A stretch of DNA of 64,000 nucleotides, from the sequence record KY963424. One strand, given 5' to 3'. The notes below the pieces were generated by a model. That model saw only the letters and a program-made list of their open reading frames with translations, ran no database searches and was not told the origin of the DNA. The number at the start of each line of letters is the position of its first letter. Positions within the stretch are counted from its first letter, which is position 1. The DNA is from Shigella phage SSP1. The translations under genes were made by a program, and so were the position numbers. Below, piece by piece: positions 6,859-30,229 of the stretch.

Positions 6859-7610
6859 TGTCAGTATTAGTCGGTTTACATGGTGAAGCTGGTTCGGGAA
6901 AAGATACCGTTGCAAAATTAATTATCGATTGGTGTAATGACACGTATCCAACGTGTTTTTCTCGTCGTTATAGTTTTGCTAAGCCCGTTTATGAACTTGC
7001 ATCCGTAATCCTCGGTGTAACTCCAGAGTTTCTAGGAGAGCGCAGGGGAAAAGAGATTGACCAATGGTTTACGGTCACACAGTCTCAATTGGAGCGAGCC
7101 AGAGATGTGTGGTTTAAGTACGGTATAGATAAGTTTGAAGACTTCTCGTACGTTTGGCCTATTTTTGAGGAAAAATATCTTAATCCTCAACAACTTATCT
7201 CAGAGAATAAAGAGGACGGACTTTATAGTTTATTTATTTCTCCGAGAAAAATGTTACAGCTCGTAGGAACAGAGCTAGGAAGGCAGCTGGTGCATGAACG
7301 CATTTGGCTCATAATTCTGGAGCAATCCATCGCTAAAGACGACCCAGACGTCGCCGTAATAACAGATGTTAGATTCCCCAATGAAGGAGAGTTACTCAGA
7401 GAAACAAACCATTTAGATATGGATTCTTTGATAGTAAATGTAGTACCAGCTGAGCAGAAGTTCACTATTAAATCAGATCATCCATCTGAAAGTGGTATTC
7501 CTGCAAAATATATTACTCACGAATTAGTTAATAAATTCGATGGTATCAATAACCTTAAACTAGAAGTTTATAACTTCTGTGACTTAGAGCTAGAACCACT
7601 AGTTGGATAA
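6858..7610 (+). CDS. dnk: deoxynucleoside monophosphate kinase
   Basis: P-loop GEAGSGKDT at N-terminus; 250 aa as recalled for T5 dNMP kinase. Confidence 0.7.
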   Translation: MSVLVGLHGEAGSGKDTVAKLIIDWCNDTYPTCFSRRYSFAKPVYELASVILGVTPEFLGERRGKEIDQWFTVTQSQLERARDVWFKYGIDKFEDFSYVWPIFEEKYLNPQQLISENKEDGLYSLFISPRKMLQLVGTELGRQLVHERIWLIILEQSIAKDDPDVAVITDVRFPNEGELLRETNHLDMDSLIVNVVPAEQKFTIKSDHPSESGIPAKYITHELVNKFDGINNLKLEVYNFCDLELEPLVG

Positions 7611-9032: not shown

Positions 9033-9442
9033 GTTTTAAATTTAGTCAAAGAAGTTTAGATAGATTAAAAGGTGTTCATCCAGACTTAGTAAGAGTAACT
9101 CATAGGGCTTTAGAATTAAGCCCGTATGATTTTACGATTACAGAAGGACTTCGTTCTCTAGAGCAAAGTGCTAAGAATATTGCTAATGGAACCTCGTTTT
9201 TAAAAGACCCAAGCAAATCCAAGCATGTTCAAGGTAGGGCGGTAGATTTTGCTCCACTTAAGGATGGAAAGATTGACTGGAATGACCTAGAATCCTTCAA
9301 GTTAGTGGCAGATGCCTTCTTCAAAGCAGCCGAAGAGCTAGGAGTAAAGATTAGATGGGGTGGTGATTGGAACCAAAATGGAAGTTATAAGGATGAAATC
9401 CAACGAGGTACTTTTGACGGACCACACATAGAACTAGTTTAA
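9029..9442 (+). CDS. lys: endolysin, L-alanyl-D-glutamate peptidase (M15 family)
   Basis: 137 aa; ALELSPYDFTITEGLRS..NIANGTSFLKDPSKSKH..DF..DWND matches recalled T5 endolysin. Confidence 0.85.
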   Translation: MSFKFSQRSLDRLKGVHPDLVRVTHRALELSPYDFTITEGLRSLEQSAKNIANGTSFLKDPSKSKHVQGRAVDFAPLKDGKIDWNDLESFKLVADAFFKAAEELGVKIRWGGDWNQNGSYKDEIQRGTFDGPHIELV

Positions 9443-9453
9443 TTAATAACTGA

Positions 9454-9477
9454 GGCGGGAATATTCCCGCCTTTTTA
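9454..9477 (+). terminator. intrinsic terminator
   Basis: Perfect palindrome GGCGGGAAT/ATTCCCGCC followed by TTTTT. Confidence 0.8.
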
Positions 9478-9519
9478 GGCAAAGGGGGCTTTAATAATTT
9501 TTGAAGATAGGAGAAAGCC

Positions 9520-9936
9520 ATGTTTGCAGAACTATTCCTTATGATGCTGCTGGGTATCTGGAAAATAAGTCTAGTAGTATTCGTTTTAATGATAGTCTTT
9601 ACTATCCTTGCATTAACTACCCGAAATAGCTTATTAATAAAGGTTATTCACGGACTAGAGTATATAATTATGGGTTCATTCGGCGTTTGTAAATGCAATT
9701 GCCATAGAGATACGAAATATTGTTGGTTATGGATGGAACTAGAGAATCCTATATCCATAGCTTTGGCTGTTTCATTCGGCATGATTCTTATGGCCCTTAT
9801 TCTAGCATTAATACCTTTGATGTTAGCTGGGGGAGTTACAGCGTATTTCACCCTTTTCTCCCCGATACTTATGTACTCAATTTACCCAATAACTATGTAT
9901 CTAGTTAGGAGAAGATTTATACATGCAGTAGATTAA
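9520..9936 (+). CDS. hypothetical polytopic membrane protein
   Basis: Several hydrophobic segments across 138 aa. Confidence 0.5.
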   Translation: MFAELFLMMLLGIWKISLVVFVLMIVFTILALTTRNSLLIKVIHGLEYIIMGSFGVCKCNCHRDTKYCWLWMELENPISIALAVSFGMILMALILALIPLMLAGGVTAYFTLFSPILMYSIYPITMYLVRRRFIHAVD

Positions 9937-9949
9937 GATAAAAAAGTAG

Positions 9950-9978
9950 TTGACTTTTAGCCCTAGTTATTGTATAAT
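9950..9978 (+). promoter_or_regulatory. T5 early-type promoter (TTGACT-N17-TATAAT)
   Basis: -35 9950-9955, -10 9973-9978, leader ACATAAATTAGTTAAGAGAGG. Confidence 0.75.
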
Positions 9979-10011
9979 ATATACATAAATTAGTTAAGAG
10001 AGGTATATATT

Positions 10012-10443
10012 ATGTCTGATCGTTTCTATACTCAAATGGCGGAACATTTTCGTATACCACATTACGAGCTAAACATTGCACTCCGTGACCATGACTCTCC
10101 TGAGTACAAAAAGCTCGAAAAGAAAGCGGAAAAATCTATTGATACAAAGGTAGGTGCATCTATGTCTAAGGGCAAAAAGTTAACTCGTCTTGATCTTAAT
10201 AAAATTTTAACTGAACTTTTGGGTACTGATATTGAAGGTGCTAAATTACCGCTTCTTGTACTAGAGACTATGATTAAAAAGGTCAAAAATAAAGAATATA
10301 AGAAGGTAGAAGTCCCAGAAGGCAGATTAAAGGCTCCTTATCAGGAAGCATTAACCGAGTGTTTGGGTGTAAATCTTGATCTGAGCACCGCAACAGTAAA
10401 AACCATGAAAAACTTCTTAGAGGCCATTAATAACTATGAGTAA
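10012..10443 (+). CDS. hypothetical protein
   Basis: ORF downstream of consensus promoter. Confidence 0.55.
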   Translation: MSDRFYTQMAEHFRIPHYELNIALRDHDSPEYKKLEKKAEKSIDTKVGASMSKGKKLTRLDLNKILTELLGTDIEGAKLPLLVLETMIKKVKNKEYKKVEVPEGRLKAPYQEALTECLGVNLDLSTATVKTMKNFLEAINNYE

Positions 10444-18177: not shown

Positions 18178-18920
18178 TTGAAGAAGCTAATAAATTTAAG
18201 AATATACTCGCTTTAGCAGTAACAGCAGATCACAAATGTCTATCAGAGCTAGAGCCAGATGTCAAACATGCAGTAATGTTTGTTTGTGAGATGTTCCCTG
18301 CTAAATGGGAGGGCAAGAAGATTAAGTTTGATATTAATGCTCCTCAAGCAGATCTAGCGTATTCATACGTGGATATGAACAAAGTATTGAAGTCTTTAGA
18401 TCCAACTGCTAAAGGGCATAGAGCTAACTTTTTACATGTTATTATAGATGAACCTTTGCCAACATATCCAGAAGCAAACGTTCGTCAGGCACTAGAGGCC
18501 TATCCTGAACAACTTCTTATTCCGCCTAAGAAATGTAAGTATGACCATCTTCCCCCTCTAAAATATATGGAGAGTGTTTCTTTCGAGGATATTAATAAAA
18601 CAATTGGAGCTATGATAGCACGGATTGCAGTATCTCATACCCGTAAGATTCCATTAACGGATATTGAAGATAACATTCTTTATGCTATTCATGATGAAGA
18701 GAATACCTTTAGACGTCTTGCGGATGTTCTAGGATTAGGATCATTAACTGCGGCTGTGCTTAACTATGCTCCTAAAACAAATAAATACCCTAGAGGTACG
18801 TTAACCTATGAGGAATCTGGATCAGAATCTTCGTTTCTAGCAACATATATTTACCTAGCATCTAAAGGGGTATATCTCAAAGCCAAGAAGAATCCAAAAA
18901 CGTTAGCAAAATCTTCTTGA
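18165..18920 (+). CDS. hypothetical protein
   Basis: 251-aa ORF; last + strand early gene before the repeat region. Confidence 0.5.
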   Translation: MGYMIEEANKFKNILALAVTADHKCLSELEPDVKHAVMFVCEMFPAKWEGKKIKFDINAPQADLAYSYVDMNKVLKSLDPTAKGHRANFLHVIIDEPLPTYPEANVRQALEAYPEQLLIPPKKCKYDHLPPLKYMESVSFEDINKTIGAMIARIAVSHTRKIPLTDIEDNILYAIHDEENTFRRLADVLGLGSLTAAVLNYAPKTNKYPRGTLTYEESGSESSFLATYIYLASKGVYLKAKKNPKTLAKSS

Positions 18921-19261
18921 CGTTATTAAAAATGTATGTTATAATAATCTCATAGATTAACAATAACTCTTATTGTGAACTCTAGGGGCGATGATTATTA
19001 CAACTCTATTTGCGTCTGTGCTATAGCGGCTAGTCTTAGCGCGGGCCAATATTAGAGTTCTTCCGTAATACTCACGCGCCCCACGAGGAATCTCACATGA
19101 AATGGGGGATCATTTACTTTTAAAACATACGAATATATTTAAAGGCAATATTTGTATTCAAGATGATACACTTGTTGCCGCTCTCCATCTCTAGGATCAC
19201 ATACACTTTCCTAGAAACTCCAGAGTTCTCACGAGATATCACACTTCTAGTGGGCGGTTCT

Positions 19262-19333
19262 CCTAAGTTTCTAGGAACATATACTAGGCGGTTAATACAG
19301 GGCGGTTATGGGGAGGGCGGTTATTTCTAGACA
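19262..19333 (+). repeat. four direct copies of GGCGGTT(A/C)
   Basis: GGCGGTT at 19263, 19297, 19311, 19326. Confidence 0.7.
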
Positions 19334-19366: not shown

Positions 19367-19972
19367 GTCGGATTTGCACACTGACATAAGTTTAAAAACT
19401 GGTCGGATTTGCACAATTGCCTAAGTTTTTAGGAACATATAATCTCCTGAAAATGCCAGCATTATTTCGGGCCGAAGGCCCATGGTTGCCTGAGTTTTTA
19501 GAGCCACAGAAATTTTCACTTGTCAAGCTATTTTGCCCCATTTAGCAAATAAAATTTTACTTTATCTCCACTAATCTCAAATTAACCCAAATCTTCTCAA
19601 CTCTTCCCCAAAATCCCCACAAATCAGGTGCTCCGCACCAAACATGCGCCCCTCTAGCTTCCCCCCCCCCCCTAATTTTCTCTCGCTCTCTCAACTTCTC
19701 CCCAAACCCACACAATCACACACCCTCTCATCGAAGTCACAAAAATATTCCTGAAACCATAAATCTGTCTCCTAGTAAACTCGTGTCGGATTTGCACATA
19801 CCCCACAGGATTCGAACGCAGTTCGAGATTGCTGGAGTTTTTGGGAAAATTCATTGTCGGATTTGCACACTATAAAAATTTTTCGGGTCGGATTTGCACA
19901 CTACCAAAAATTGTCGGATTCGCACATACACGCCCGCACGTAACACCCGTGGAGCAATGTCGGTTTTGCACA
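19367..19972 (+). repeat. dispersed array of seven copies of 14-mer GTCGGATTTGCACA
   Basis: Exact copies at 19367, 19402, 19785, 19856, 19887; one-mismatch copies at 19913 and 19959; same orientation. Confidence 0.85.
19661..19672 (+). repeat. C12 homopolymer within a G-depleted C/A/T-rich tract
   Basis: Twelve consecutive C; surrounding 19560-19780 has about 6 percent G on + strand. Confidence 0.85.
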
Positions 19973-20002
19973 AAAGCGCAGGGCAATTGCCCTGCGCTAA
20001 AT

Positions 20003-20160
20003 ACGAATGATAATAAGAATCATTCTCATTTAAAAAGCGGAATGAGAATGATAATAATTCGCATTTAGAAAGTGAAATGAGAATCAATCTCATTTAAAAA
20101 GTGGAATGATTCTCATTTAGATAGTGGAATGCAAATGATAATGATTCGCATTTAAGAACG
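20003..20160 (+). repeat. tandem array of degenerate AT-rich palindromic repeats (AATGAGAAT...ATTCTCATT / TGATAAT cores)
   Basis: About five tandem units each ending CATTTA(R)AAAG; extra copy at 20491-20512; resembles Fur-box-like GATAAT arrays. Confidence 0.6.
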
Positions 20161-20161
20161 G

Positions 20162-20295
20162 AAGTGAGAAACACTGTTATTTAAGTTATCCACAGACTTA
20201 TCAACAGCACGATTTGACTTGACAAAACCCTAGCCATTTTGAAGCGTTATTAACAGACTTATCCACAGCTTATCCTACTGTATAAATATACAGTA
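20162..20295 (+). repeat. left arm of about 135-bp imperfect inverted repeat carrying DnaA boxes
   Basis: Reverse complement of 23553-23686 aligns with few mismatches; TTATCCACA at 20186-20194 and 20259-20267, TTATCAACA at 20198-20206. Confidence 0.8.
20276..20295. promoter_or_regulatory. LexA (SOS) box-like palindrome TACTGTATAAATATACAGTA
   Basis: 19 of 20 matches to E. coli LexA consensus TACTGTATATATATACAGTA. Confidence 0.55.
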
Positions 20296-20550
20296 TTCCT
20301 ACGCAGTGAATAATTCTAATATAGCGTTAAAACGCTCTCAAACGCATTCTAACGCGTTTAATTTTGGTGGGGATACTAAATCAAGGGCAAAATTGAAGGA
20401 GGCTTGAAAATTAGTTAGCGCGCTAACGATCACACAAGGCGACACGTAACACCCGAATCATTAGCAGGCTAACCATCGCGGGCGCGGTCAAATGAGAATG
20501 ATTATCATTTGAAAATTGGGGCACTTCCAGATAGTTGCGCCCCGTGATTA

Positions 20551-20745
20551 TTAGTCTGGTAGTCGATGCGTGATCTTTTCCTCCTCCCCATATGAGTCCA
20601 CCAAATACTTATAATAACCATCGTGATCATAAATCACTTTATCATATTCGCCACGCTCAACCGCTTGTCGGTTTTCCGGCGTATCGGGCACGTAAAAAAC
20701 ATCAACCATTGTACTAGTTTTGGTTACAACAATTTTATTGCTCAT
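20551..20745 (-). CDS. hypothetical protein (cassette gene 8)
   Basis: 64-aa ORF, GC-richer composition, last gene of minus-strand cassette. Confidence 0.45.
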   Translation of the reverse strand: MSNKIVVTKTSTMVDVFYVPDTPENRQAVERGEYDKVIYDHDGYYKYLVDSYGEEEKITHRLPD

Positions 20746-20855
20746 AATAACTCCCTAGTAAATATATTTTTGCCAATAGTGGCGAACGTTATCGCCCCCA
20801 GCGGAATCATTAGCGGCCTTACTATTACCAACGAAAGTATATAATCTCATTAGTA

Positions 20856-21017
20856 TTATTTTCCTTGCATTAATTTATATATAACGAACATTCCGCAAAA
20901 CTGCCCTAATATAGTGCAGACAACAAGGGATAACACAATATTGCCGATTGTGTTATAAATAACCATACCAACAATAAGGGATAACGCATATCCTAGCAAA
21001 GCAATATAAACAGCCAT
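20856..21017 (-). CDS. small two-TM membrane protein (cassette)
   Basis: ATG one nt after upstream stop; hydrophobic MAVYIALLGYALSLIVGMVIY and LSLVVCTILGQFCGMFVIY. Confidence 0.45.
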   Translation of the reverse strand: MAVYIALLGYALSLIVGMVIYNTIGNIVLSLVVCTILGQFCGMFVIYKLMQGK

Positions 21018-21018
21018 A

Positions 21019-21363
21019 TTATTTACCCATTTTTCGAAACGCTGTTTCAATACTATCAGCCGTGGATTGAATATATGCTCCTTTCATTATCAGGCGCTCG
21101 GTGCACACCTTACGGAAAATATTAATAAAATCATCCTCATTTTCTGCAATTAATGCTTCACCCATAACCTGAACGTCGCAAGCTGCAAAGGTTAAAAATT
21201 GAAACGCTAGTTCACGGGCAACGACCGCATTGATTTTATAATGCGCCTTACCCTCATAAATATTAATAACGCCCTTATATGCTGGCGAAAGCTGGTTTAA
21301 ATAGCTTGCTAATAATGCCGGGCGGCAGTTAGCAACAAAACGATTTCCCTCATAAATAACCAT
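21019..21363 (-). CDS. hypothetical protein (cassette)
   Basis: 114-aa ORF with GGGAGG RBS supplied by upstream small ORF. Confidence 0.55.
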   Translation of the reverse strand: MVIYEGNRFVANCRPALLASYLNQLSPAYKGVINIYEGKAHYKINAVVARELAFQFLTFAACDVQVMGEALIAENEDDFINIFRKVCTERLIMKGAYIQSTADSIETAFRKMGK

Positions 21364-21364
21364 T

Positions 21365-21490
21365 TTATAACCTCCCGATCAGATAGCCCGATAATAACAT
21401 AAAGATCCCCAGCGAAAGAGGATCATTCTTAAATAAGGTGGCGATAAAACCGCCAGCCATTGCAAGGGCAATAACAATAACGCTTTTCAT
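21365..21490 (-). CDS. small hydrophobic peptide (41 aa, cassette)
   Basis: ATGA overlap with upstream stop; sequence MKSVIVIALAMAGGFIATLF...; below track cutoff. Confidence 0.4.
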   Translation of the reverse strand: MKSVIVIALAMAGGFIATLFKNDPLSLGIFMLLSGYLIGRL

Positions 21491-21699
21491 AGTACCCCAC
21501 GAAACGCAGCGTAAAAGGTGGCAAAGTGCCTAACCGTTTCAAGGATCACGTTGCCGCGCTTGTCGAATTTCTTTTCAGTAACACGAAAAGCGTTTTTGTT
21601 ACGTGCTACATATTCGATTTTACAATCTGGACGCTCGAATGTGTTAGCATCCACCAGCTTAAAACCTTTCGAACGTGCAAGAGAAACGTTACGAATCAT
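21487..21699 (-). CDS. hypothetical protein (cassette)
   Basis: 70-aa ORF translationally coupled to neighbours. Confidence 0.5.
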   Translation of the reverse strand: MIRNVSLARSKGFKLVDANTFERPDCKIEYVARNKNAFRVTEKKFDKRGNVILETVRHFATFYAAFRGVL

Positions 21700-21701
21700 T
21701 T

Positions 21702-21881
21702 TTATTCTCCTTTACTATTCATGCAGCCCAGCAGATAAGAAAATGCAGCGATACCCGCGCCAATAATAACCATTGGTTTTGTGACTACTAAACCGCAATA
21801 ATCTTGAATGCCGTAAGCGGTGGCGAAAAGGGTCAAAATAGCGCCCAAGATACCCGCCAGAATAGCTCGAAAAATAACCAT
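21702..21881 (-). CDS. small two-TM membrane peptide (59 aa, cassette)
   Basis: GGGGAG RBS; MVIFRAILAGILGAILTLFATAYG...MVIIGAGIAAFSYLLG; below track cutoff. Confidence 0.45.
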   Translation of the reverse strand: MVIFRAILAGILGAILTLFATAYGIQDYCGLVVTKPMVIIGAGIAAFSYLLGCMNSKGE

Positions 21882-21931
21882 TTTTTAATACTCCCCTAGT
21901 TAGTGGGGCGAAAGTAACGCCCCGTTATTAA

Positions 21932-22162
21932 TTACATTAAGATAATTTTTGCAGCTTGTTTTTTGGTGCAATGTTCCGCCTTCAGGGTATCCAGCAAAAA
22001 GCCCGCTGTTTGTTGATCGATTTGATCATTATCATAAAGCGTCTGGATGGTGTTATAAGTTTTAGCAATGCCGTATTCTTGGACCATTTCTTGAATAATC
22101 CAGCGATTTGATACCCAGCCTTTACCAGTGAAAAGAGCGTCAGAAGAAGAAAAAGCAACCAT
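21932..22162 (-). CDS. hypothetical protein (cassette)
   Basis: 76-aa ORF on cassette strand. Confidence 0.5.
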   Translation of the reverse strand: MVAFSSSDALFTGKGWVSNRWIIQEMVQEYGIAKTYNTIQTLYDNDQIDQQTAGFLLDTLKAEHCTKKQAAKIILM

Positions 22163-22277
22163 TTTAAGCCTCCAAATTTTTGGGAAAATTTTCGACCGTC
22201 CTCAAACGGTGTAAAGGCATTATAACAAAAAAGGCCACCATAAAAGGCGACCTTTACAAAACTTTACAATAGGCTAG

Positions 22278-23267
22278 TTATTGCTCGTTTTCGGTGTTAT
22301 TGGTAAAAGTAGAAATATCGATACCTTTTACCATTTCATCGATCATCTCAGCGATGTTAAAACTTTGGACCATTTCCAACATTGCCGCTTCCATAGCCGC
22401 CCCCGCTACCGCTTTCGCTTTCTGGTTACTCGGGGCGTACTGGTCAACCGCTACACTCAGCAGGTTAGCGATCACTACACGACCAACCGGCGTATCAATA
22501 TAGCCTTTGATCATGAACGGTGCTTTTTTAGCCGCTACTTTCGTGATTTGAGTTAGTGCAATTTTACCCGCTTCCAGTTTTGCAGCGTTTACAACGGCAG
22601 ACTTATTGGCGGCAACGATGTTAGCAATCTTGGTCATAGTGTTTTTTCCTTTATTTTCAGTAGTTTGAGTGTGAACGCTTTTAGTGTTAGAATTTACAGC
22701 ATGTTTTTCTATATTGCCAATACTTTCTTCCCTTTCGAAAGAAAATCCGGCGTCAACAATATCGCCGTCATATACCCGATTATATAACTCCGACGGTAGC
22801 AAAAAATTACCGTTATCATCAAAGGCCATTATAGCCGCAAAACGATACCCATCAGAATCCGACCGATTCCAGCCAACTGATAAATAACGCCAAAATGAAT
22901 CAAGAAAATTTTCTACGTCATAAAGATCATTATCATTGGCCTCATAGTTTTCTATTGAAAAAACTTCTAAGCCCGCCCCAGTATCATAGGCTTTTACTGT
23001 GTTGCCTTTTACGATTATGAAATCAGTATCCGGCCCCCGACTAGTGAGTAATTGATAATCCTGATTATACAAAACAAGCGTTGCCCCTTGCTTATATAAC
23101 GGTAGAAAACTATTCATATTATAAGCATCATAAGCATCAAAAAAGTTTTGATGAATAGTTTCAATATTGAAAACAAAATGTTTAATGCTGGTGGTCCTGC
23201 TACCATCCAGCAGGTTACGCAGCGCACCTTTTAAGACGGTTGCGTTATCTGGTTTATATAGCCTCAT
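22278..23267 (-). CDS. hypothetical 329-aa protein (first and largest cassette gene)
   Basis: Long ORF with RBS GAGGAGG; N-terminal Asp/Tyr-rich domain and Ala/Lys-rich helical C-terminal half; no motif I recognise. Confidence 0.6.
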   Translation of the reverse strand: MRLYKPDNATVLKGALRNLLDGSRTTSIKHFVFNIETIHQNFFDAYDAYNMNSFLPLYKQGATLVLYNQDYQLLTSRGPDTDFIIVKGNTVKAYDTGAGLEVFSIENYEANDNDLYDVENFLDSFWRYLSVGWNRSDSDGYRFAAIMAFDDNGNFLLPSELYNRVYDGDIVDAGFSFEREESIGNIEKHAVNSNTKSVHTQTTENKGKNTMTKIANIVAANKSAVVNAAKLEAGKIALTQITKVAAKKAPFMIKGYIDTPVGRVVIANLLSVAVDQYAPSNQKAKAVAGAAMEAAMLEMVQSFNIAEMIDEMVKGIDISTFTNNTENEQ

Positions 23268-23552
23268 TTGTTGGCCTCCTCGTTAATCGGTGAGTGAATG
23301 ATAAGGGTAATTTTCTAGTATAGGCAAAGATTATTTTACTTTTTTATTTTCCTTGCCTAGTGCCTAATTTTATGCTAACCGCGCAGCGGTGTAATAAAGA
23401 GCAAAACACGGCGAAGCCACCAGGGCGCCGCATTGCCGCCACCTGGCCAACGTGTTGGGCCTTTACTTTAATATTACCCCGCAGCGTTTAGCTCGTTAGA
23501 AAGCGTTTTAGGCGGCCTAAAATTGATTGCAGTCGTTAACACTGCCTTTCTA

Positions 23553-23572
23553 CCCTGTATATTTATACAGTA
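23553..23572. promoter_or_regulatory. LexA box-like palindrome (CTGTATATTTATACAG core)
   Basis: CTGT-N8-ACAG with AT spacer, 17 of 20 to LexA consensus; inverted copy of the site at 20276-20295. Confidence 0.5.
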
Positions 23573-23686
23573 GGATAACCTGTGGATAACTCTGTGTAAA
23601 AGTCCCCATATCGCCGCCTATTGTGTCAAATTATTTTGTGCTGTGGATAACGTTGTGGATAACTTAAATGATAGTGGTTCTCACTT
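23553..23686 (+). repeat. right arm of inverted repeat carrying DnaA boxes
   Basis: TGTGGATAA at 23581-23589, 23642-23650, 23654-23662; reverse complement matches 20162-20295. Confidence 0.8.
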
Positions 23687-23696
23687 ATGCCGATAG

Positions 23697-23765
23697 TTTC
23701 TTATAGTTATTATTATAATGGTGATGATTACATATAGCTATTATTATAGTGGTGATGATTTCATA
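23697..23765 (+). repeat. AT-rich direct repeats (two copies of about 31 bp)
   Basis: AGTTATTATTATAATGGTGATGATTACATAT and AGCTATTATTATAGTGGTGATGATTTCATAT in tandem inside a 350-bp AT-rich non-coding stretch. Confidence 0.75.
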
Positions 23766-24045
23766 TAGTTATTATTTCTCATTAATTTATAAGTATATTA
23801 TATATCATGAAATAGTTAGTTGGCTAATGAGATTTTCCGTGATTAATAGTCTGCTAATAGTTCAGGCCGTTACAATCCACCAGCATGATTATCATCCTAG
23901 CAATTATTAGTCTGCTATCTTTCCGATGCATACTAACAAATAAAAGTCAATTAATTAATTTTATAAAATAAGTCATTTGATCTTGATTTTTAAAAGTCAA
24001 GACCTTTTCCAACTATTTTTCAATTTTGCGTTTGTTAATGATTTG

Positions 24046-24285
24046 TTAAGTCGAAAATAGGCGGCCTAAAACGCCCCAGAACGCAATAAAGTTTTTAGCC
24101 ATCCCATCATAAGGGGATATGCCGTTTATCGCTGCCACGAGGTTTTTGGATTTTGTCAAGTAGGGCAGGGCAAATATAAATGAAAAAATTACTTGCCTAT
24201 TTGCTTTGTTTTGTGGTATTCGCGCGCCCGTTTCTTTTAATTTTGGGCCGTCGCCGGACGTGGTGCGGAAAACTGTATTAGCCAT
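24046..24285 (-). CDS. hypothetical protein (doubtful)
   Basis: 79-aa minus-strand ORF without clear RBS or promoter. Confidence 0.25.
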   Translation of the reverse strand: MANTVFRTTSGDGPKLKETGARIPQNKANRQVIFSFIFALPYLTKSKNLVAAINGISPYDGMAKNFIAFWGVLGRLFST

Positions 24286-24286
24286 A

Positions 24287-24314
24287 TTGCTAATAATTTT
24301 GATATAATATAATA
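24287..24314 (+). promoter_or_regulatory. sigma70 promoter (TTGCTA-N16-TATAAT)
   Basis: -35 24287-24292, -10 24309-24314, upstream of HNH gene with AGGAG RBS. Confidence 0.5.
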
Positions 24315-24342
24315 ACCAAATGAAACTAATAGGAGAATACTA

Positions 24343-24684
24343 ATGATTGAACTAACAAAAGATATTGATTTAGAAACCGTACTAGATAACCTTTACTATG
24401 ATGAAACTAGTCCTAGTTGCCTACGGTGGAAAGTATCCCGCCCCGGTTGCGCCCTTCATGGGGTAGCAGGTACTAAACGGAAGGATGGCTATTGGTCTGT
24501 TCAACTAAATAAAGAGCGTTATCTTGCGCATCGTATTGTGTGGTTACTATTTAATTATAAAATAGATAGCAAACTAGTAATTGATCATATTGATCGTAAT
24601 CCTAGTAACAATTTTATTGATAACTTACGGTTAGTAACTCAAGCCGAAAACAACCAAAATAAAGGAGAGTATAGAAAGGCGTAA
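24343..24684 (+). CDS. HNH homing endonuclease
   Basis: LAHRIVWLLF...IDHIDRNPSNNFIDNLRLVTQAENN HNH_3 motif; AT-rich relative to neighbours. Confidence 0.75.
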   Translation: MIELTKDIDLETVLDNLYYDETSPSCLRWKVSRPGCALHGVAGTKRKDGYWSVQLNKERYLAHRIVWLLFNYKIDSKLVIDHIDRNPSNNFIDNLRLVTQAENNQNKGEYRKA

Positions 24685-24804
24685 AATTTACATTTCTTTA
24701 CAAATATAAGGTTGCGCCTTTTTCGTTATTTGTTATTATTTATCTCGTAGGGCGGCAATGACGAACTACACGGCGGGAAGTTTACCGCCGCGCTCTTTAA
24801 AAAT

Positions 24805-24828
24805 TGGGTATATCTTAAAGCCTATCGG
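24805..24828 (+). repeat. left copy of 24-bp inverted repeat TGGGTATATCTTAAAGCCTA(T/C)CGG
   Basis: Reverse complement of 25075-25098 with one mismatch. Confidence 0.8.
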
Positions 24829-24862
24829 CGGTAAACTTATTACATTATAAGGAATCGACGAT

Positions 24863-25066
24863 ATGAAACAAACTTTATTGATCACTGGTAAACCTAGCAA
24901 GGCACTGGATAGCAAAACAAAAAATTTATTGACAGTAGCGCAAAGATCGGTAAAATATCGATTTGAGCAGTACAAGAAAGGCCGCCAGCAAGGTTTAGAA
25001 ATGATCTGGCGAAATATTATGATCGACCTGAAGGAAAATCATAAAAAACTGCAAAAAATAGTTTGA
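24863..25066 (+). CDS. hypothetical basic 67-aa protein flanked by inverted repeats
   Basis: ORF with AAGGAA RBS lying between the two 24-bp repeat copies. Confidence 0.45.
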   Translation: MKQTLLITGKPSKALDSKTKNLLTVAQRSVKYRFEQYKKGRQQGLEMIWRNIMIDLKENHKKLQKIV

Positions 25067-25074
25067 CAACATAG

Positions 25075-25098
25075 CCGGTAGGCTTTAAGATATACCCA
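25075..25098 (-). repeat. right copy of 24-bp inverted repeat
   Basis: CCGGTAGGCTTTAAGATATACCCA is reverse complement of left copy. Confidence 0.8.
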
Positions 25099-25296
25099 GT
25101 TCGATAAGAGCGATAACTTGATACAATTTGACGGTCGGTACTTACCATAATGTGCCCCGCCCCCTAACTGGGATATAGCGGCCCGCGTGGAGTTCCTTAA
25201 ATTGATTTTATAATGGCGAGCGGATTTTTTCTTATTACCTGTTATTTTCCAGCAGGTAATGCGGAACAATCCCCTAAATAACTTGGAGTTTATACC

Positions 25297-25548
25297 ATGA
25301 AAAACGTTATTACCGCGCCTAAAATTGGTCAATCTGTTTTCATCCCTTTCGTTACTAAAACGGATGAATTAACCGGAAAAGCCGAACGTATTAAAGGCGC
25401 GGCGCTCATGCCGTTCGATACAATCGATGCGGTATACGCTGAAACAGAACGCAGTAACAACGGCAAGCCGATTTATAACGTTCGCGTTAAATCTGGCGAC
25501 GTTGTAAAGGTTGTTCAACGCAACGAAAAATGGGAAGCCGTTTTATAA
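25297..25548 (+). CDS. hypothetical pre-early protein
   Basis: ORF preceded by conserved leader CCCCTAAATAACTTGGAGTTTATACC. Confidence 0.55.
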   Translation: MKNVITAPKIGQSVFIPFVTKTDELTGKAERIKGAALMPFDTIDAVYAETERSNNGKPIYNVRVKSGDVVKVVQRNEKWEAVL

Positions 25549-25562
25549 TTTAGTGTTAACTT

Positions 25563-25590
25563 TATATGCCCCAGTAGTTCGGGGCATATA
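25563..25590 (+). other. GC-cored hairpin without U-tract (pre-early intergenic punctuation)
   Basis: 10-bp stem TATATGCCCC/GGGGCATATA with 8-nt loop. Confidence 0.6.
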
Positions 25591-25646
25591 ACGATTAACA
25601 TTATGTTAATCTTATCCCTTAAATTAAATTAATTGGAGTTTATATC

Positions 25647-26054
25647 ATGACTAACGTTAAAGCCGCAAAATTCACCTGGAACGAAGAAAACACCCAAAAA
25701 GCTGTTACCATGTATCAGCAGTTAATCAATGAAAACGGATTAGAATTCGCAAACAGCGACGGCCTGAAAGAGATTGCGAAAGCAGTGGGCGCGACTTCTC
25801 CCGTGTCAGTTCGTTCGAAATTGACCAGCGCGAAAGCCTATCAAAAAAGCGATAAGCCTCGCAAGGTTGGCGGCGGTAGCTCAATCCGCAAGGCTCATTA
25901 TGTGCGAGTAATTGCAAGACACGCCATCGATTCCGGCATTATCAAAGACGCCGATGATCTGGCAAGCCTTGAAAGCGCGAAGCTGGAAACGCTGGACGCC
26001 GTGGCGCAGTTGTTAGGCGTTGCCGATGAGGTGAAACAAGCCGCAGGCGAATAA
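25647..26054 (+). CDS. hypothetical pre-early protein
   Basis: ORF preceded by leader CCTTAAATTAAATTAATTGGAGTTTATATC. Confidence 0.55.
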   Translation: MTNVKAAKFTWNEENTQKAVTMYQQLINENGLEFANSDGLKEIAKAVGATSPVSVRSKLTSAKAYQKSDKPRKVGGGSSIRKAHYVRVIARHAIDSGIIKDADDLASLESAKLETLDAVAQLLGVADEVKQAAGE

Positions 26055-26062
26055 ATTTAATT

Positions 26063-26088
26063 AGTGGGGATTATTCCCCACTATTTTC
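26063..26088 (+). terminator. hairpin / possible terminator
   Basis: Stem AGTGGGGA/TCCCCACT loop TTAT followed by ATTTTCC. Confidence 0.5.
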
Positions 26089-26109
26089 CCCTTGATTGGA
26101 GTTTTTAAA

Positions 26110-26307
26110 ATGATCTTTTACCCCACTGAATCGCTCATTCTAGGCTTATTTATTATGGCGGCCTCGTTATTGTTCGCATATTTTCAAAATGATTTAGATT
26201 CGTATTATTTTAAACGCAAATCTAAGTTAGCGAAGCGTTTGGGCCTGATTTGTTTTATTGCCGCCGTTGCTTGTGGTGTTAGTTCTAGCCTGATGCCGAT
26301 TAGTTAA
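26110..26307 (+). CDS. small two-TM membrane protein (pre-early)
   Basis: ATG after TTGGAGTTTTTAAA leader; hydrophobic LILGLFIMAASLLFAYF and LGLICFIAAVACGV. Confidence 0.5.
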   Translation: MIFYPTESLILGLFIMAASLLFAYFQNDLDSYYFKRKSKLAKRLGLICFIAAVACGVSSSLMPIS

Positions 26308-26319
26308 ATATTGCAAATT

Positions 26320-26345
26320 ATAACGCCTATTATTGGAGGCGTTAT
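26320..26345 (+). other. intergenic hairpin
   Basis: Stem ATAACGCCT/AGGCGTTAT. Confidence 0.55.
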
Positions 26346-26347
26346 AT

Positions 26348-26364
26348 TTGGCAATATTTGCCAA
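26348..26364. promoter_or_regulatory. 17-bp palindrome TTGGCAA-TAT-TTGCCAA (operator-like)
   Basis: Perfect 7-bp half-sites, located about 40 bp upstream of A1 start. Confidence 0.4.
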
Positions 26365-26404
26365 TAACAAACGTTTTTTAATCCCTTTAATGGAGTTTAT
26401 TATT

Positions 26405-28075
26405 ATGATTATTTCCGCAGAAAAACAAACCGTTATCCTGAAGCTGGCCGCTGACTTTAATTTCTATGGTAAACGTCTGCGCGCCACTAAATTGGAAGTA
26501 TGTGACGATATTTCGAAAGCGGTATACGATACACCGAAACACTCTACCGCGATTTGTGATTGGCTGGAAGCAAATAAACCAGCGAAACCGAAAACGGCAA
26601 AAGTAGCAAAAGCTATTAAAAACGACGAGCGCCCCGAGGCGGCTGGAATTATTTCTAGCACGGTGGAACAGTGGGAAGTAAAGCAGGGCAAACGCTTTAT
26701 TATTACATCGATTCAGAATAATACTTTCCCGCATAAAAACTTTTTGGCCTCACTGGAACAATACGCTAAATTTATCGGCGCTGATTTACTTGTTTCTAAG
26801 TATATTTATAACAAAAACGGCTTTCAAAATGGTGAAGGCGCGGACGGTGTAAAATATGATTCCGCGTTTGATAAGTATATTTGCAGCAAAAACGTGTTTT
26901 TAAATAACCGCCGTTTTGCTTTCATGGCTGAAATTAATGTTCTGCCCACTGCAGACTATCCGCTGTCTGGATTCGCAGAAACTGCAACGGCTCTCAATCT
27001 TGAAGGTCTGGCAATTGGTCACGCTAAAATCACCGCCGAAAGCGTGCCAGCTCTCAAAGGTGAAGTAGTACGCCGCATGTACTCAACCGGAACGGCAACA
27101 CTCAAAAACTACATTCAGCAGAAAGCAGGACAGAAAGCGGAAGCACTGCATAATTTCGGTGCGCTGATTGTTGAGTTCGACGAAGACGGTGAGTTTTTTG
27201 TGCGCCAGCTTGAAACGATGGACGAAAGCGGCATGTTTTACGATTTGAATATTTGCGCGACCCCCGCCGGATGTTATGAAACATCGGGGCATGTTTTAGG
27301 TTTACAATATGGCGACATACACGCCGAAAAACTTGATGAGGAGTGCGCCGCAGCGTCATGGGGTCATGGTGATACTTATGGGCTAGTGGATATTCTTAAA
27401 CCTAAATATCAGTTTGTGCATGACGTTCACGATTTTACATCACGCAACCATCACAACCGCGCTTCAGGTGTATTTCTAGCGAAACAGTATGCAGCCGGAC
27501 GTGACAAGGTTCTGGATGATCTCATCGACACCGGGCGCGTGCTGGAATCAATGGAACGTGATTTTAGTCAAACGATCATTGTCGAATCTAATCACGATCT
27601 GGCGCTATCCCGTTGGCTTGATGATCGCAATGCTAACATTAAAGACGATCCAGCCAACGCGGAACTGTATCACCGCCTTAATGCTGCGATTTACGCGGCA
27701 ATCGGTAATCATGACGATACTTTCAACGTGCTGGATTATGCGCTGCGTACGGTTGCAGGTTGCGAGTTTAACGCGATTTTCCTGACAACTGACCAATCGT
27801 TTAAAATCGCAGGCATTGAATGCGGCGTACACGGTCACAACGGCATTAACGGGAGCCGTGGCAATCCGAAGCAATTCAAGAAATTGGGCAAGTTAAACAC
27901 GGGGCACACCCACACCGCCAGCATTTACGGCGGCGTTTATACCGCTGGCGTCGCTGGTTCCCTCGATATGGGCTATAACGTTGGCGCGTCAAGCTGGACG
28001 CAAACGCATTTAATTACCTATGCAAACGGCCAGCGCACTTTGATTGACTTTAAAAACGGCAAATTTTTCGCATAA
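26405..28075 (+). CDS. A1: A1 pre-early protein (metallophosphatase-fold, host DNA degradation/takeover)
   Basis: 556 aa from ATG 26405 as recalled for T5 A1; phosphoesterase motifs GDIHAE and GHGD; conserved pre-early leader. Confidence 0.75.
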   Translation: MIISAEKQTVILKLAADFNFYGKRLRATKLEVCDDISKAVYDTPKHSTAICDWLEANKPAKPKTAKVAKAIKNDERPEAAGIISSTVEQWEVKQGKRFIITSIQNNTFPHKNFLASLEQYAKFIGADLLVSKYIYNKNGFQNGEGADGVKYDSAFDKYICSKNVFLNNRRFAFMAEINVLPTADYPLSGFAETATALNLEGLAIGHAKITAESVPALKGEVVRRMYSTGTATLKNYIQQKAGQKAEALHNFGALIVEFDEDGEFFVRQLETMDESGMFYDLNICATPAGCYETSGHVLGLQYGDIHAEKLDEECAAASWGHGDTYGLVDILKPKYQFVHDVHDFTSRNHHNRASGVFLAKQYAAGRDKVLDDLIDTGRVLESMERDFSQTIIVESNHDLALSRWLDDRNANIKDDPANAELYHRLNAAIYAAIGNHDDTFNVLDYALRTVAGCEFNAIFLTTDQSFKIAGIECGVHGHNGINGSRGNPKQFKKLGKLNTGHTHTASIYGGVYTAGVAGSLDMGYNVGASSWTQTHLITYANGQRTLIDFKNGKFFA

Positions 28076-28082
28076 TTAAATT

Positions 28083-28110
28083 TATAAGCGGGGTATATAC
28101 CCCGCTTATA
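28083..28110 (+). other. GC-cored hairpin without U-tract
   Basis: Stem TATAAGCGGGG/CCCCGCTTATA around TATATA loop. Confidence 0.6.
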
Positions 28111-28142
28111 TCCCTTATTAAATTAATTGGAGTTTTATAACT

Positions 28143-28535
28143 ATGAAAAAGCAAAATATCCCATTCGATCGCGCTCAATCTTCCATCGTTCTGGTTTATT
28201 CTAATGGTGAGCGGTATCACGTTGAGGCCGGTCACGTTGTTGATGATTTAATCGACTTTAATGACGCTTTACAGATTACTACTTTCGCCTATACGCAAGG
28301 CCGCGCAAGTAGTCACATCAAGGCCGCAGGCGTTTATGTTGATACGGTGAAGCAGGAAACGATTATCATCGACGCCGTAAAATCCGGTCTAGCCTTTGCA
28401 GTTGTCGCGCCTTGTCCAGCTTGCTTTGATGATCAGCTATCGAGCGCAAAGGTATATATCTGCGCGGGTGTTCGTTCTCATGTATCCGGCGAAGATATTA
28501 GTTTCATCGCTGATGCGTTGGCTTATGGTCTTTGA
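28143..28535 (+). CDS. A2: A2-like pre-early protein (assignment by position and size)
   Basis: 130-aa ORF between A1 and dmp with conserved leader TTAAATTAATTGGAGTTTTATAACT. Confidence 0.45.
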   Translation: MKKQNIPFDRAQSSIVLVYSNGERYHVEAGHVVDDLIDFNDALQITTFAYTQGRASSHIKAAGVYVDTVKQETIIIDAVKSGLAFAVVAPCPACFDDQLSSAKVYICAGVRSHVSGEDISFIADALAYGL

Positions 28536-28548
28536 TAGTTGATTTATT

Positions 28549-28575
28549 ATTGCCCGCTGATAAATAGCGGGCAAT
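28549..28575 (+). other. GC-cored hairpin without U-tract
   Basis: 10-bp stem ATTGCCCGCT/AGCGGGCAAT, loop GATAAAT. Confidence 0.6.
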
Positions 28576-28615
28576 GCTGGATAAACTAAATCCCTTTAAT
28601 GGAGAACGTAACAAA

Positions 28616-29350
28616 ATGAATCAAGTTAAAATGAATATTACCCGTAATTTCCCGCATATTTCCCGCGTCATGATTTGGGATCTGGACGGAACAATCATTA
28701 ATTCATTCCATCGTGTCGCGCCTTGCTTTGATAGCGAGGGTAATTTAGATTTAAATAAGTATAAGAATGAAGCGTGTAAGCATCATTTAATAATGCAAGA
28801 TACCTTATTGCCTTTGGTTGAATATATGCGCCAGTGCATGAATGACGCAAATACTTTAAACATTATTTGTACCGCTCGACTAATGAGCAAATCGGACTAT
28901 TATTATTTGCGCAAACAAGGCTTACGCGGTCGTGGGGATAGTAATATCCGCGTGTTTTCCCGCGATACGCTGCATAAATATTTTGAAGCTGATAAAGTTA
29001 GCGAAATATACCACAGTAAGGACGCAGTTTATAAATCGTATTATTTTGAGCTATTCAAACAACTATATCCGAACGCTGATTTTACAATGATTGATGATCA
29101 TAAAGGTGTATTATCAGCGGCAGCGTCATACGGATTTAAAACGCTGGACGCGCAAGCCGTTAATGATATTCTATCAATCGGCGTGGCATTGATAGGCGGA
29201 ACCTTTATTGATGAATCTCTCGATGATGATAATGATTATCAGTTCCTAGCGGACCGCTTAAAACTATGTTGGGAAAGCATGACCGAAGAAGAACGCGCAG
29301 AATATAGTTGCAGCCCGCAACAATATATTGAGAAATTAAAAGTTGCGTAA
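28616..29350 (+). CDS. dmp: 5-prime-deoxyribonucleotidase (HAD family)
   Basis: 244 aa from ATG 28616 as recalled for T5 Dmp; HAD motif I WDLDGTI. Confidence 0.75.
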   Translation: MNQVKMNITRNFPHISRVMIWDLDGTIINSFHRVAPCFDSEGNLDLNKYKNEACKHHLIMQDTLLPLVEYMRQCMNDANTLNIICTARLMSKSDYYYLRKQGLRGRGDSNIRVFSRDTLHKYFEADKVSEIYHSKDAVYKSYYFELFKQLYPNADFTMIDDHKGVLSAAASYGFKTLDAQAVNDILSIGVALIGGTFIDESLDDDNDYQFLADRLKLCWESMTEEERAEYSCSPQQYIEKLKVA

Positions 29351-29526
29351 TAATTAAAATTGAAATAGTTTCATCCTGTAATTAAAAATGGTTGCAGGGT
29401 GAAACAGTTAGCAGGGTAATAGTCACGGGGGTGGCGGTTAGCAGACTAAGTATTTTCGCCCTAGCCACTGGACTCACCCACGCGTACGTAATCCAAAGAA
29501 TTTGGCAAAAGTCATTTTAGCGCTAA

Positions 29527-30024
29527 TTAATTATGATTTGCAAACTCACCGTGATAGTGCTCCCTGGCTTTTCTAAGTTCTTTTTCAGCCTGCTCAAGAG
29601 TTTTAAAAGTTCCCACGGTAATCCTATTGCCATTTACACGTAATTTTGCTTCGAACTTTTCCTCACCACGTTTATATACTCCCTTAACTCCGGTAGACTC
29701 ATTCTTCCATCCCGAAGAGTTTTTGCCATTCTCTGCATTTGTTGCTTTACGCAGGTTATTCCATCTATTGTTGAAAGGATCTTGATCTTTATGATCAATG
29801 AGAAACTCACTCGGATCTTCTCCTGTCATGTATAGATATGCTACCCGATGGGCTTTATATAACCCATTACTGCCCATTGATAGGGATATTCCTGAGCTGT
29901 TTCTACTGCCTGCTGGCTTACCTTTACGACTTCCCGAGTTCCAAGTAAAGATACCAGTTCCAGGATCATAATCAAATTTCTTCTGGTATTCTGCTAAGGG
30001 CAGTAGAGGTTTATGATTTGCCAT
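29527..30024 (-). CDS. HNH homing endonuclease with AP2-like domain
   Basis: AHRVAYLYMTGEDPSEFLIDHKDQDPFNNRWNNLRKATNAEN; 165 aa, paralog of 5634-6131. Confidence 0.75.
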   Translation of the reverse strand: MANHKPLLPLAEYQKKFDYDPGTGIFTWNSGSRKGKPAGSRNSSGISLSMGSNGLYKAHRVAYLYMTGEDPSEFLIDHKDQDPFNNRWNNLRKATNAENGKNSSGWKNESTGVKGVYKRGEEKFEAKLRVNGNRITVGTFKTLEQAEKELRKAREHYHGEFANHN

Positions 30025-30229
30025 CTATCTTGGATCTCCTCCGAGAACTTCTTGAACCGTCATTCCACTCCCGCTCAAACTCCGCACGTTTCTCATCAAA
30101 CTTCCGCTCCCTTTCCGCAATCTCCCGCGATACTTCCGCAATATATTTACGATGCTTGTTGATTGCCGCAGTCGTCCCGAAAACTCCCGCGAGTATCCCG
30201 ATAATAAAAGCAATTACAATACTAAACAT
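30011..30229 (-). CDS. small single-pass membrane protein with charged C-terminus
   Basis: TM segment FSIVIAFIIGILAGVFGTTAAI then Arg/Glu-rich tail; coupled to upstream ORF. Confidence 0.5.
   Translation of the reverse strand: MFSIVIAFIIGILAGVFGTTAAINKHRKYIAEVSREIAERERKFDEKRAEFEREWNDGSRSSRRRSKIDGKS

Follow-up and report, generated by a model that had tools for sequence, protein, structure and literature searches.

A G-poor, strand-polar tract beside the terminal repeat boundary of Shigella phage SSP1 and its possible link to the genome end

We analyzed a stretch of 64,000 nucleotides from Shigella phage SSP1 (KY963424; "the window" hereafter), which holds at 19537 to 19745, on its + strand, a noncoding tract almost free of G. 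Our tentative reading, to which we give a probability of about 0.4, is that the tract is a strand-polar cis element that would be defined largely by base composition and tied to the end of the phage genome. An end-linked role is favored because the boundary of the terminal repeat (TR) lies within 0 to 36 bp of the tract in three groups of phages, because the tract has a constant length and strands free of structure, and because the G-poor strand is the one that is nicked. It is also favored because the tract sits between arrays of repeats on the packaged side of the cut. The source is almost certainly a T5-like phage (Demerecviridae, Tequintavirus) nearest to Spc35, and the tract a subterminal noncoding segment of its TR; this degree of confidence, based on sequence comparison, applies to identity and context jointly.

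Results

The initial annotation of this DNA, made from the letters alone, pointed to about 220 bp of G-poor noncoding sequence at 19560 to 19780 and called such strand asymmetry unusual for noncoding DNA of this genome. Both observations are borne out. On the + strand, these 221 nt contain 64 A, 89 C, 13 G, and 55 T, while 221-nt windows across the 64 kb hold 45.5 G on average (standard deviation, 7.9), with a minimum of 11 at 19546. The difference G minus C per 200 nt reaches −73 at 19533, versus a mean of +4.8 (standard deviation, 11.3), or a z of about −6.9. This is the strongest excess of C over G in the 64 kb, the second most extreme value being −43. The proposed limits fared less well: the 35 nt on the right side (19746 to 19780) are a decayed copy of the repeat known in T5 as direct repeat D (DRD), and the tract proper covers 19537 to 19745. 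Over about 200 nt, the + strand of this core is 40% C and 6% G. Its homology was established from alignments with T5, Th1, MM-1, and Spc35 and with 25 IMG/VR sequences; the + strand of the window corresponds here to the "minus" strand of T5.

The core tract begins 36 bp inside the right boundary of the TR. We place this boundary at 19500/19501 because four independent TR annotations, the ends of seven contigs, and the starts of two records converge there. The annotated TR ends of T5 (10139), MM-1 (10407), Spc35 (9573), and EscoHU1 (9914) share one alignment column, that of window position 19501; seven IMG/VR contigs terminate exactly 10 nt ahead of an invariant 26-mer at 19511; and the GenBank records of NBSal003 and TUMS_E3 begin at the boundary base. 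The TR of phage IME260 ends with the homologous ...CTGTGGCTC. In the right-hand copy of the repeat, the virion DNA physically ends on the right at 19500/19501. The strand poor in G has its 5′ end at this terminus and also bears the T5 nicks.

The nicks of T5 DNA lie in the minus (3′-5′) strand (PMC10644984, PMC13250531), which is the + strand of the window. The 8-mer found at T5 nicks, CCCTGCGC, maps to palindrome J and to 7047, and the interruption is annotated in AY692264. Its second occurrence, at 7040 to 7047 on the − strand, falls where major nick 2 of T5 (18.3%) would be expected. From this recurrence, the nick sites appear to be conserved in SSP1. With nick 1 at 19975/19976, the right repeat has a 475-nt terminal fragment of the nicked strand, and this fragment carries the tract. 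Each single strand of the terminal 476 nt, compared with shuffled versions, shows no excess folding (z of +0.4 and +1.8).

The elements on the + strand follow one another in the order last early gene, promoter-like site, two DRD, GC hairpin, TR boundary, 36 bp, and tract, and then decayed DRD, five DRD, palindrome J with nick 1, DRC palindromes, DnaA boxes, and pre-early genes. DRD copies in the region number seven in all. Since those at 19367 and 19402 are outside the TR, the tract and the cut site lie between DRD arrays, and the tract fills the gap between the two arrays. The corresponding part of T5 is called "Repeat Region 3" or the "injection stop signal" region. Homology to T5 at about 9.2 to 10.4 kb, the order of the elements, the DRD, and the DnaA boxes all agree with membership in Repeat Region 3, the noncoding T5 region described by Davison (bioRxiv 10.1101/866236). 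In AY692264 (st0), a 1-kb feature at 9140 to 10144 named "injection stop signal" covers part of it.

Megablast and blastn found homologues of the tract in 441 phage records, every one T5-like. Detailed alignments comprised 30 distinct sequences, namely, the window and 29 relatives. The relatives have tracts of 203 to 205 nt with 4.9 to 9.3% G, compared with 209 nt in the window, and four Epseptimavirus copies at about 75% identity measure 205 to 206 nt with 7.3 to 9.8% G. Near-invariant blocks, such as CTTCCCCAAAAT, TTTCTCTCGCTCTCTCA, ACAATCACACACCCTC, and ATCGAAGTCACAAAAAT, alternate with variable ones. There is a single hypervariable island, at 19651 to 19676, where column conservation is 3 to 40% versus 90 to 100% around it. 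Variants that create a G are about half as frequent as those of the complementary class (A to G in 11 of 59 columns versus T to C in 21 of 52, counted as raw columns with phylogeny ignored). Judging from these alignments, composition and length seem to be kept more than sequence.

Two elements stand out within the tract. An 18-nt direct repeat occurs twice, 94 bp apart, where 0.06 matches would be expected by chance; a third match, at 44838 with 3 mismatches, is unrelated. The second element is a short hairpin (19627 to 19639), in which 96% of cells are paired while the loops vary. Two of its five pairs are doubly changed (GGCGT...ACGCC) in Th1, UTK0009, and EscoHU1; these compensatory changes probably represent a single evolutionary event, which makes the evidence modest. 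The hairpin is flagged as terminator-like on the − strand only.

Distant phages were found by homology of their A1 proteins, and the syntenic noncoding gap was inspected in each. Klebsiella phage IME260 (Sugarlandvirus; A1, 74%) has 79 G and 19 C per 200 nt in T5 orientation, with runs of four to five G about 10 bp apart, and its tract ends 30 bp from the TR end. Erwinia phage KEY (A1, 66%) has 9 G and 66 C per 200 nt directly after the homologous boundary motif, and Proteus phage M4H10_20 (Novosibvirus; A1, 42%) has 8 G and 69 C as well as 17 G and 73 C per 200 nt. Per 150 nt, there are 11 G and 54 C in Vibrio phage pVp-1 (A1, 32%) and 13 G and 49 C in Vibrio phage Chester (A1, 33%). The Chester tract carries tandem CTAGACTTCTATCCAT without G-runs and begins at record position 118545, the start of the right repeat, so that its most C-rich 150-nt window starts at the TR boundary. 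In each of these phages, no other window of the locus is as extreme as the tract. Relative to A1, every lineage shows one and the same polarity, though the sequences cannot be aligned, and wherever the ends are known, in three lineage groups, the TR boundary is 0 to 36 bp away from the tract. On these comparisons, G depletion is inherited and family-wide.

A promoter-like site with the sigma-70 pattern (18917 to 18945) faces about 550 nt of noncoding DNA, followed by the TR boundary and the tract, and RNA from this predicted promoter would carry the C-rich strand. Promoter-like TTGACA-17-TATAAT sites, with 11 or 12 of 12 matches, also lie just after the last early gene and face the tract in T5, IME260, KEY, Proteus phage M4H10_20, and pVp-1. 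The motif TGTATGTTA is common to the window, T5, IME260, KEY, and the Proteus phage; pVp-1 is without it. There is no promoter feature at this site in the parts of two T5 records that we examined.

The only reading frames over the tract are mechanical ones of 52 to 60 aa, and relatives carry indels of 1 to 6 nt within it. We rejected coding potential on the grounds that the overlapping frames are mechanical only and that the indels of the relatives are not in triplets. A 55-aa frame at 19163 to 19330 was likewise rejected as a gene, being without a ribosome-binding site in a region rich in indels. A search of Rfam returned nothing within the tract; weak, subthreshold matches fall in the DRC palindromes. 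No Chi site was seen on the G-rich strand when the sequence was read. The boxA-like CGCTCTCTCAAC and a hairpin recall a lambda nut site, but their order and spacing are wrong, and we judged them a by-product of composition.

The run of 12 C reported in the initial annotation is present exactly as described, and the warning that came with it, of a slippage-prone or hazardous homopolymer, proved well founded. The run lies in the hypervariable island, and its length differs between sequences: the longest C-run is C4 or C5 in 28 of the 30 distinct sequences, C7 in Spc35, and C12 in the window alone. Here most relatives have ...TAGCTTCTCCCCTAA and Spc35 has ...TTCCCCCCCTAA, which the window exceeds by five C. 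The 40 best phage matches are all 5 to 7 nt shorter over the C12 interval. No variant with at least 7 C at the site was found in IMG/VR, and all 31 metagenome matches are due to chance, without homology. Within the 64 kb, there is no other C or G run of at least 7 and no A or T run of at least 9. C12 makes the tract of the window 5 nt longer than the others and breaks its constant length by half a helical turn. Because it sits in a hypervariable island, all best matches are shorter, and no variant with at least 7 C turned up in IMG/VR or among homologous metagenome contigs, C12 is either a very recent private slippage expansion (C4 to C7 to C12) or a homopolymer miscall; as far as the alignments tell, it is not part of the conserved design. 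Nor does it look like a phase-variable contingency locus, there being no conserved open reading frame (ORF) and no promoter hexamers around 19661 to 19672. Separately, runs of C8 to C9 or G8 occur in other T5-like genomes (L024, 87 to 95; L042, 6742 to 6750; L021, 4324 to 4331). Since these runs are in noncoding DNA near the repeat end, homopolymer growth there is not unique to the window.

A further proposal of the initial annotation, that multiple G-runs give the complementary strand G-quadruplex (G4) potential, stood only in part. The G-runs exist, and the G4Hunter minimum of −2.6, at C12, is the strongest value in the 64 kb. No canonical G4 motif (at least 3 G in each of four runs, loops of 1 to 7) occurs on either strand of the window. 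A four-run motif appears only with loops of up to 12 (its loops are 8, 1, and 1), and it uses C12 itself. In the 29 distinct relatives, no such four-run motif appears even with these longer loops; their lowest G4Hunter scores fall between about −1.2 and −1.8. The G4 potential is strain-private because the motif depends on C12 and no relative has one; on this evidence, it is a by-product of the homopolymer. The distant tracts differ among themselves, with a canonical G4 array in IME260 and no G-runs in Chester. The IME260 array (L059, record positions 10100 to 10247) has about ten runs of G3 to G5 spaced 8 to 13 bp apart, is canonical with loops of at most 7, and ends 30 bp from the annotated repeat end. 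By its sequence, it far surpasses the SSP1 tract as a G4 candidate.

Table 1. Features of the region around the G-poor tract of phage SSP1 (window coordinates)
Feature	Position	Strand	Remarks
Last early gene	ends 18920	+	From the ORF listing
Promoter-like sigma-70 site, TTGACG-17-TATAAT with TG	18917-18945	+	11 of 12 matches; overlaps the last early gene's stop codon
Two DRD repeats outside the TR	19367-19380 and 19402-19415	+	Repeat search, T5 annotation, alignment
GC hairpin, GGGCC-GAA-GGCCC	19469-19481		Ends 19 nt outside the TR boundary
Whole TR, about 10 kb, one copy in the assembly	19501-29474	-	Reversed relative to the T5 reference
Terminal 36 bp of the TR, invariant block	19501-19536	+	GAGCCACAGAAATTTTCACTTGTCAAGCTATTTTGC
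Core G-depleted, C-rich tract	19537-19745	+	11 G in 209 nt; homologous to T5 AY587007 at about 9898-10103
18-nt direct repeat, copy 1	19595-19612	+	TCTCAACTCTTCCCCAAA; overlaps T5 "direct repeat A" copies 2-3
Hairpin (inverted repeat), GGTGC-TCC-GCACC	19627-19639		5 bp; sole G-containing block in mid-tract
C12 homopolymer	19661-19672	+	Inside the island at 19651-19676
18-nt direct repeat, copy 2	19689-19706	+	TCTCAACTTCTCCCCAAA
Decayed DRD copy 6 and spacer	19746-19780	+	G's of GTCGGATTCGCACA lost, now CCTGAAACCATAAA
Five DRD repeats GTCGGATTTGCACA within the TR	19785-19972 (starts 19785, 19856, 19887, 19913, 19959)	+	T5 "direct repeat D"
Palindrome J with T5 major nick 1 site	19975-19998	+	Nick at 19975/19976 by homology, on the + (G-poor) strand
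DRC palindromes	20000-20180
DnaA boxes, paired TTATCCACA and TTATCAACA	20185-20269

The identity of the phage follows from several comparisons. A megablast search with the region returned 455 records of T5-like phages, with Spc35 closest at about 98% identity, and the A1 gene (26333 to 28075) encodes a protein 99.7% identical to A1 of Spc35. The tract region spans the TR boundary, with the pre-early genes on one side and the first early gene on the other. The TR is collapsed to a single copy in the assembly (Table 1) because T5 coordinate 1 maps to 29474 and is directly followed by sequence of the unique right end of T5, and because dmp adjoins the receptor-binding tail genes. Roughly double read depth over 19501 to 29474 would be expected from this collapse, with junctions at 19500/19501 and 29474/29475 and a true genome about 10 kb longer than the circular assembly suggests.

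Other observations concern the repeat and its left end. Between that end and the unique right-end genes are about 575 bp (29479 to 30053), compared with about 108 bp in T5; they hold a − strand ORF at about 29530 to 30025, and annotated relatives list an HNH homing endonuclease nearby, an identity that is putative here. GC content is 49.5% at 27001 to 28000, within the A1 gene, versus about 38% elsewhere in the window. A mirror asymmetry at the left genome end (29385 to 29446, with 24 G and 8 C in 62 nt) was set aside as modest, not a window extreme, and overlapping the dmp terminator hairpin. Copy 1 of T5 direct repeat A was rejected as a binding site at the left end, as it is inside ORF011 at 6960 and not terminal.

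Around the tract, the GC hairpin is invariant in T5, Th1, MM-1, and Spc35 and has a near-identical form in KEY. The decay of DRD copy 6 to CCTGAAACCATAAA extends the G-poor zone to 19780. This decayed form is common to the window, Spc35, and S124 only, and most relatives have an intact DRD copy at the position. At a site that reads CTCTCGCTCTCTCA, free of G, in T5 and the window, S113 and saus176N carry the DRD-like TCATCGGATTCGCA; given such turnover, part of the tract may consist of decayed DRD copies. Just outside the TR, at 19251 to 19328 on the + strand, lies a G-rich cluster of GGGCGGTTAT (G4Hunter, +1.6), with a skew opposite to that of the tract 200 nt farther on; it is kept in T5, Th1, MM-1, and KEY. 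Matches to the Fur-box-like GATAATGATAATCATTATC with 2 or 3 mismatches number four, at two places, versus 0.1 expected. The first place, 20009 to 20027, belongs to the DRC palindromes in the injection-stop region; the second, 29222 to 29246, is within a 258-aa + strand ORF (28574 to 29350) near the left repeat end. FhuA, the best-known receptor of T5-like phages, is iron-regulated.

Discussion

Two forms of an end-linked role can be envisaged. In the first, the tract, the invariant 36-bp block, and the flanking DRD arrays would together make up the site where the packaging and end-forming machinery recognizes and cuts the concatemer. In the second, the tract would be part of a 3′ tail about 475 nt long, GT-rich and free of structure, which removal of the nicked-strand fragment would expose at the right end, and this tail could pair with the left repeat. 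As in a terminase site, the tract is adjacent to the cut (36 bp) and on its packaged side, an assignment that is trivially true for the right copy. Candidates for binding boxes or bends are the 18-nt repeat, the flanking DRD arrays, and a periodicity of A-tracts at 10.2 bp, by which the tract ranks 30 of 6380 windows; we regard bending as suggestive only.

Several points weigh against an end-linked role. Packaging from the right end first is deduced from injection from the left end first, A-tract phasing reaches no better than its rank of 30, and TR ends are known for just three of the compared lineages. Outside the TR, pVp-1 and Chester have another, weaker C-rich stretch. Among close relatives, the tract is 86 to 89% conserved versus about 97% for the DRD zone and the adjacent gene, and we therefore dropped conservation as proof of function. 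Such lower conservation fits a compositional signal rather than a sequence-specific one and would be unusual for a terminase binding site. Finally, the conserved predicted promoter on the same strand would make a role at the RNA level equally natural.

The alternative to which we give the most weight, though we think it unlikely, is such a role at the RNA level. RNA of the C-rich + strand, originating at the promoter at 18917 to 18945 or by read-through of the early operon that ends at 18920, would load host Rho at a rut-like tract and end transcription at the repeat boundary, before it enters the injection-stop region and the pre-early genes in antisense. The base composition is that of a rut site, and the tract shows no folding beyond that of shuffled sequences (z of +0.36). 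From the last early gene to the tract, the + strand has no annotated or predicted intrinsic terminator, and polymorphism is biased against new G on this strand. Distant lineages keep the composition, not the sequence, downstream of a conserved promoter with no ORF between. Termination by Rho, however, leaves unexplained the proximity of boundary and tract (0 to 36 bp) in three highly divergent lineages, the fixed length of 203 to 206 nt, and the near-invariant blocks. A variant of the hairpin (L028) can form its G-U pairing on the opposite strand only, and in the literature on Rho or on transcript maps in T5 infection we found nothing relevant.

It is improbable, in our view, that the tract is part of the injection stop signal. 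The tract would then be held in the tail or portal during the pause and would help to stop transfer or to restart it via A1 and A2. It is in Repeat Region 3, which is conserved in T5-like phages and treated as a candidate region for a signal still undefined in the 2026 literature, and the feature of that name in AY692264 overlaps it. That feature is, however, a broad label on a sequenced fragment and not a mapped function. With the shear point of first-step transfer estimated at T5 9618, the tract of the left copy would be about 280 to 480 bp beyond it; the tract is thus farther right than both the shear point and the published candidates, outside the DNA already in the cell. Moreover, a stop signal does not predict strand asymmetry.

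We consider it quite improbable that the tract has no function of its own and is a compositional relic, for example, of decayed DRD or C-rich units, with C12 a sequencing or assembly error. The tract does evolve faster than its flanks, DRD copies do decay into G-poor sequence (copy 6; CTCTCGCTCTCTCA versus TCATCGGATTCGCA), and C12 is unique and breaks the constant length. Against a relic stand the same polarity and extreme skew at a syntenic site in six unalignable lineages, a length of 203 to 206 nt held across about 25% divergence, the bias of polymorphism against G, and the compensatory changes of the hairpin at 19627 to 19639. Least probable of all is a G4 or i-motif on the G-rich strand acting as a block to DNA or RNA polymerase or as an end structure: the G4Hunter extreme and four-run motif of the window, the GGGGATTTTGGGG carried by T5-type sequences, and the IME260 array at an analogous place are outweighed by the 0 of 29 relatives with such a motif, by a Chester tract without G-runs of at least 3, by the location of G12 in the least conserved 25 nt of the tract, and by the conserved trait itself, which is the lack of G on one strand and not the G-runs on the other.

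Returning to the end-linked reading, a bolder version of it would take the lack of G on the 5′-ended strand beside the right repeat boundary as a family-wide polarity signal of Demerecviridae ends, coded in composition; we find this version decidedly doubtful. The conserved early promoter would read across the cut site into the tract and so mark the concatemer for cutting, as the T7 phiOR promoter reads into the CJ pause site, and the GT-rich 3′ tail left by loss of the 475-nt fragment would invade the left repeat and prime concatemer synthesis. Were it true, such a signal would link the strand-specific nicks, the 10-kb repeats, and the complex noncoding region at the repeat end.

Taken by itself, the SSP1 tract is another copy of a long-sequenced noncoding region of T5, with the addition of a private, possibly unreliable homopolymer that calls for caution in assembly. 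The wider pattern is a G-poor tract of fixed polarity at or beside the TR boundary, downstream of a conserved, unannotated predicted promoter, in six unalignable lineages of Demerecviridae, and this family-wide pairing of tract and promoter is the part that deserves the attention of specialists. How T5 DNA transfer stops and restarts has been an open question for decades, and in papers from 2020 to 2026 neither the stop signal nor the mechanism of restart is regarded as defined; we found no literature on how the ends of the 10-kb repeats are cut and duplicated. Workers on T5 gain a small, delimited target, about 200 bp plus a 36-bp terminal block, that is amenable to existing T5 engineering tools. 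The significance of the tract would thus concern how T5-like phages define their DNA ends, not G-quadruplexes.

Comparison with known systems

The closest counterpart is Repeat Region 3 of T5 itself, which has the same DnaA-box inverted repeats, DRC palindromes, nick 1, DRD, tract, TR end, and further DRD, with T5 direct repeat A copies 2 and 3 within the tract. SSP1 differs in its decayed DRD copy 6 and, alone, in its private C12. The published accounts, in their accessible portions, list repeats and palindromes and do not single out the G-poor tract, its polarity, or its analogues. The poly-C run resembles contingency tracts in that its length varies among close relatives (C4 to C5, C7, and C12), but it is outside any reading frame or promoter spacer, switches no gene, and varies, as far as is known, between isolates. 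Telomere-like G-rich 3′ strands offer another likeness, as the G-rich strand of the tract runs 5′ to 3′ toward the DNA end, with G4ATTTTG4 and, here, G12. Unlike such strands, the tract is without a tandem array, its last 36 bp are not G-rich, relatives lack the canonical motif, and the same tract is also internal, in the left repeat.

With rut sites, such as lambda tR1, the tract shares a C-rich, G-poor, unstructured sequence of more than 80 nt downstream of the end of an operon, its transcription being putative; its link to the repeat boundary, constant length, and invariant blocks are not required by rut sites. In lambda cosB, SPP1 pacL/pacR, and the T7/T3 concatemer junction, terminase recognition regions lie beside the cut site. 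By analogy with these, the tract may be seen as a noncoding block on the packaged side of a precise end, flanked by short repeats, and, as in T7 with its phiOR promoter and CJ pause site, a promoter, here predicted only, would read across the junction. It differs from these terminase sites in that its signal would be mainly compositional and strand-asymmetric rather than made of defined boxes and in that its repeat is 10 kb long.

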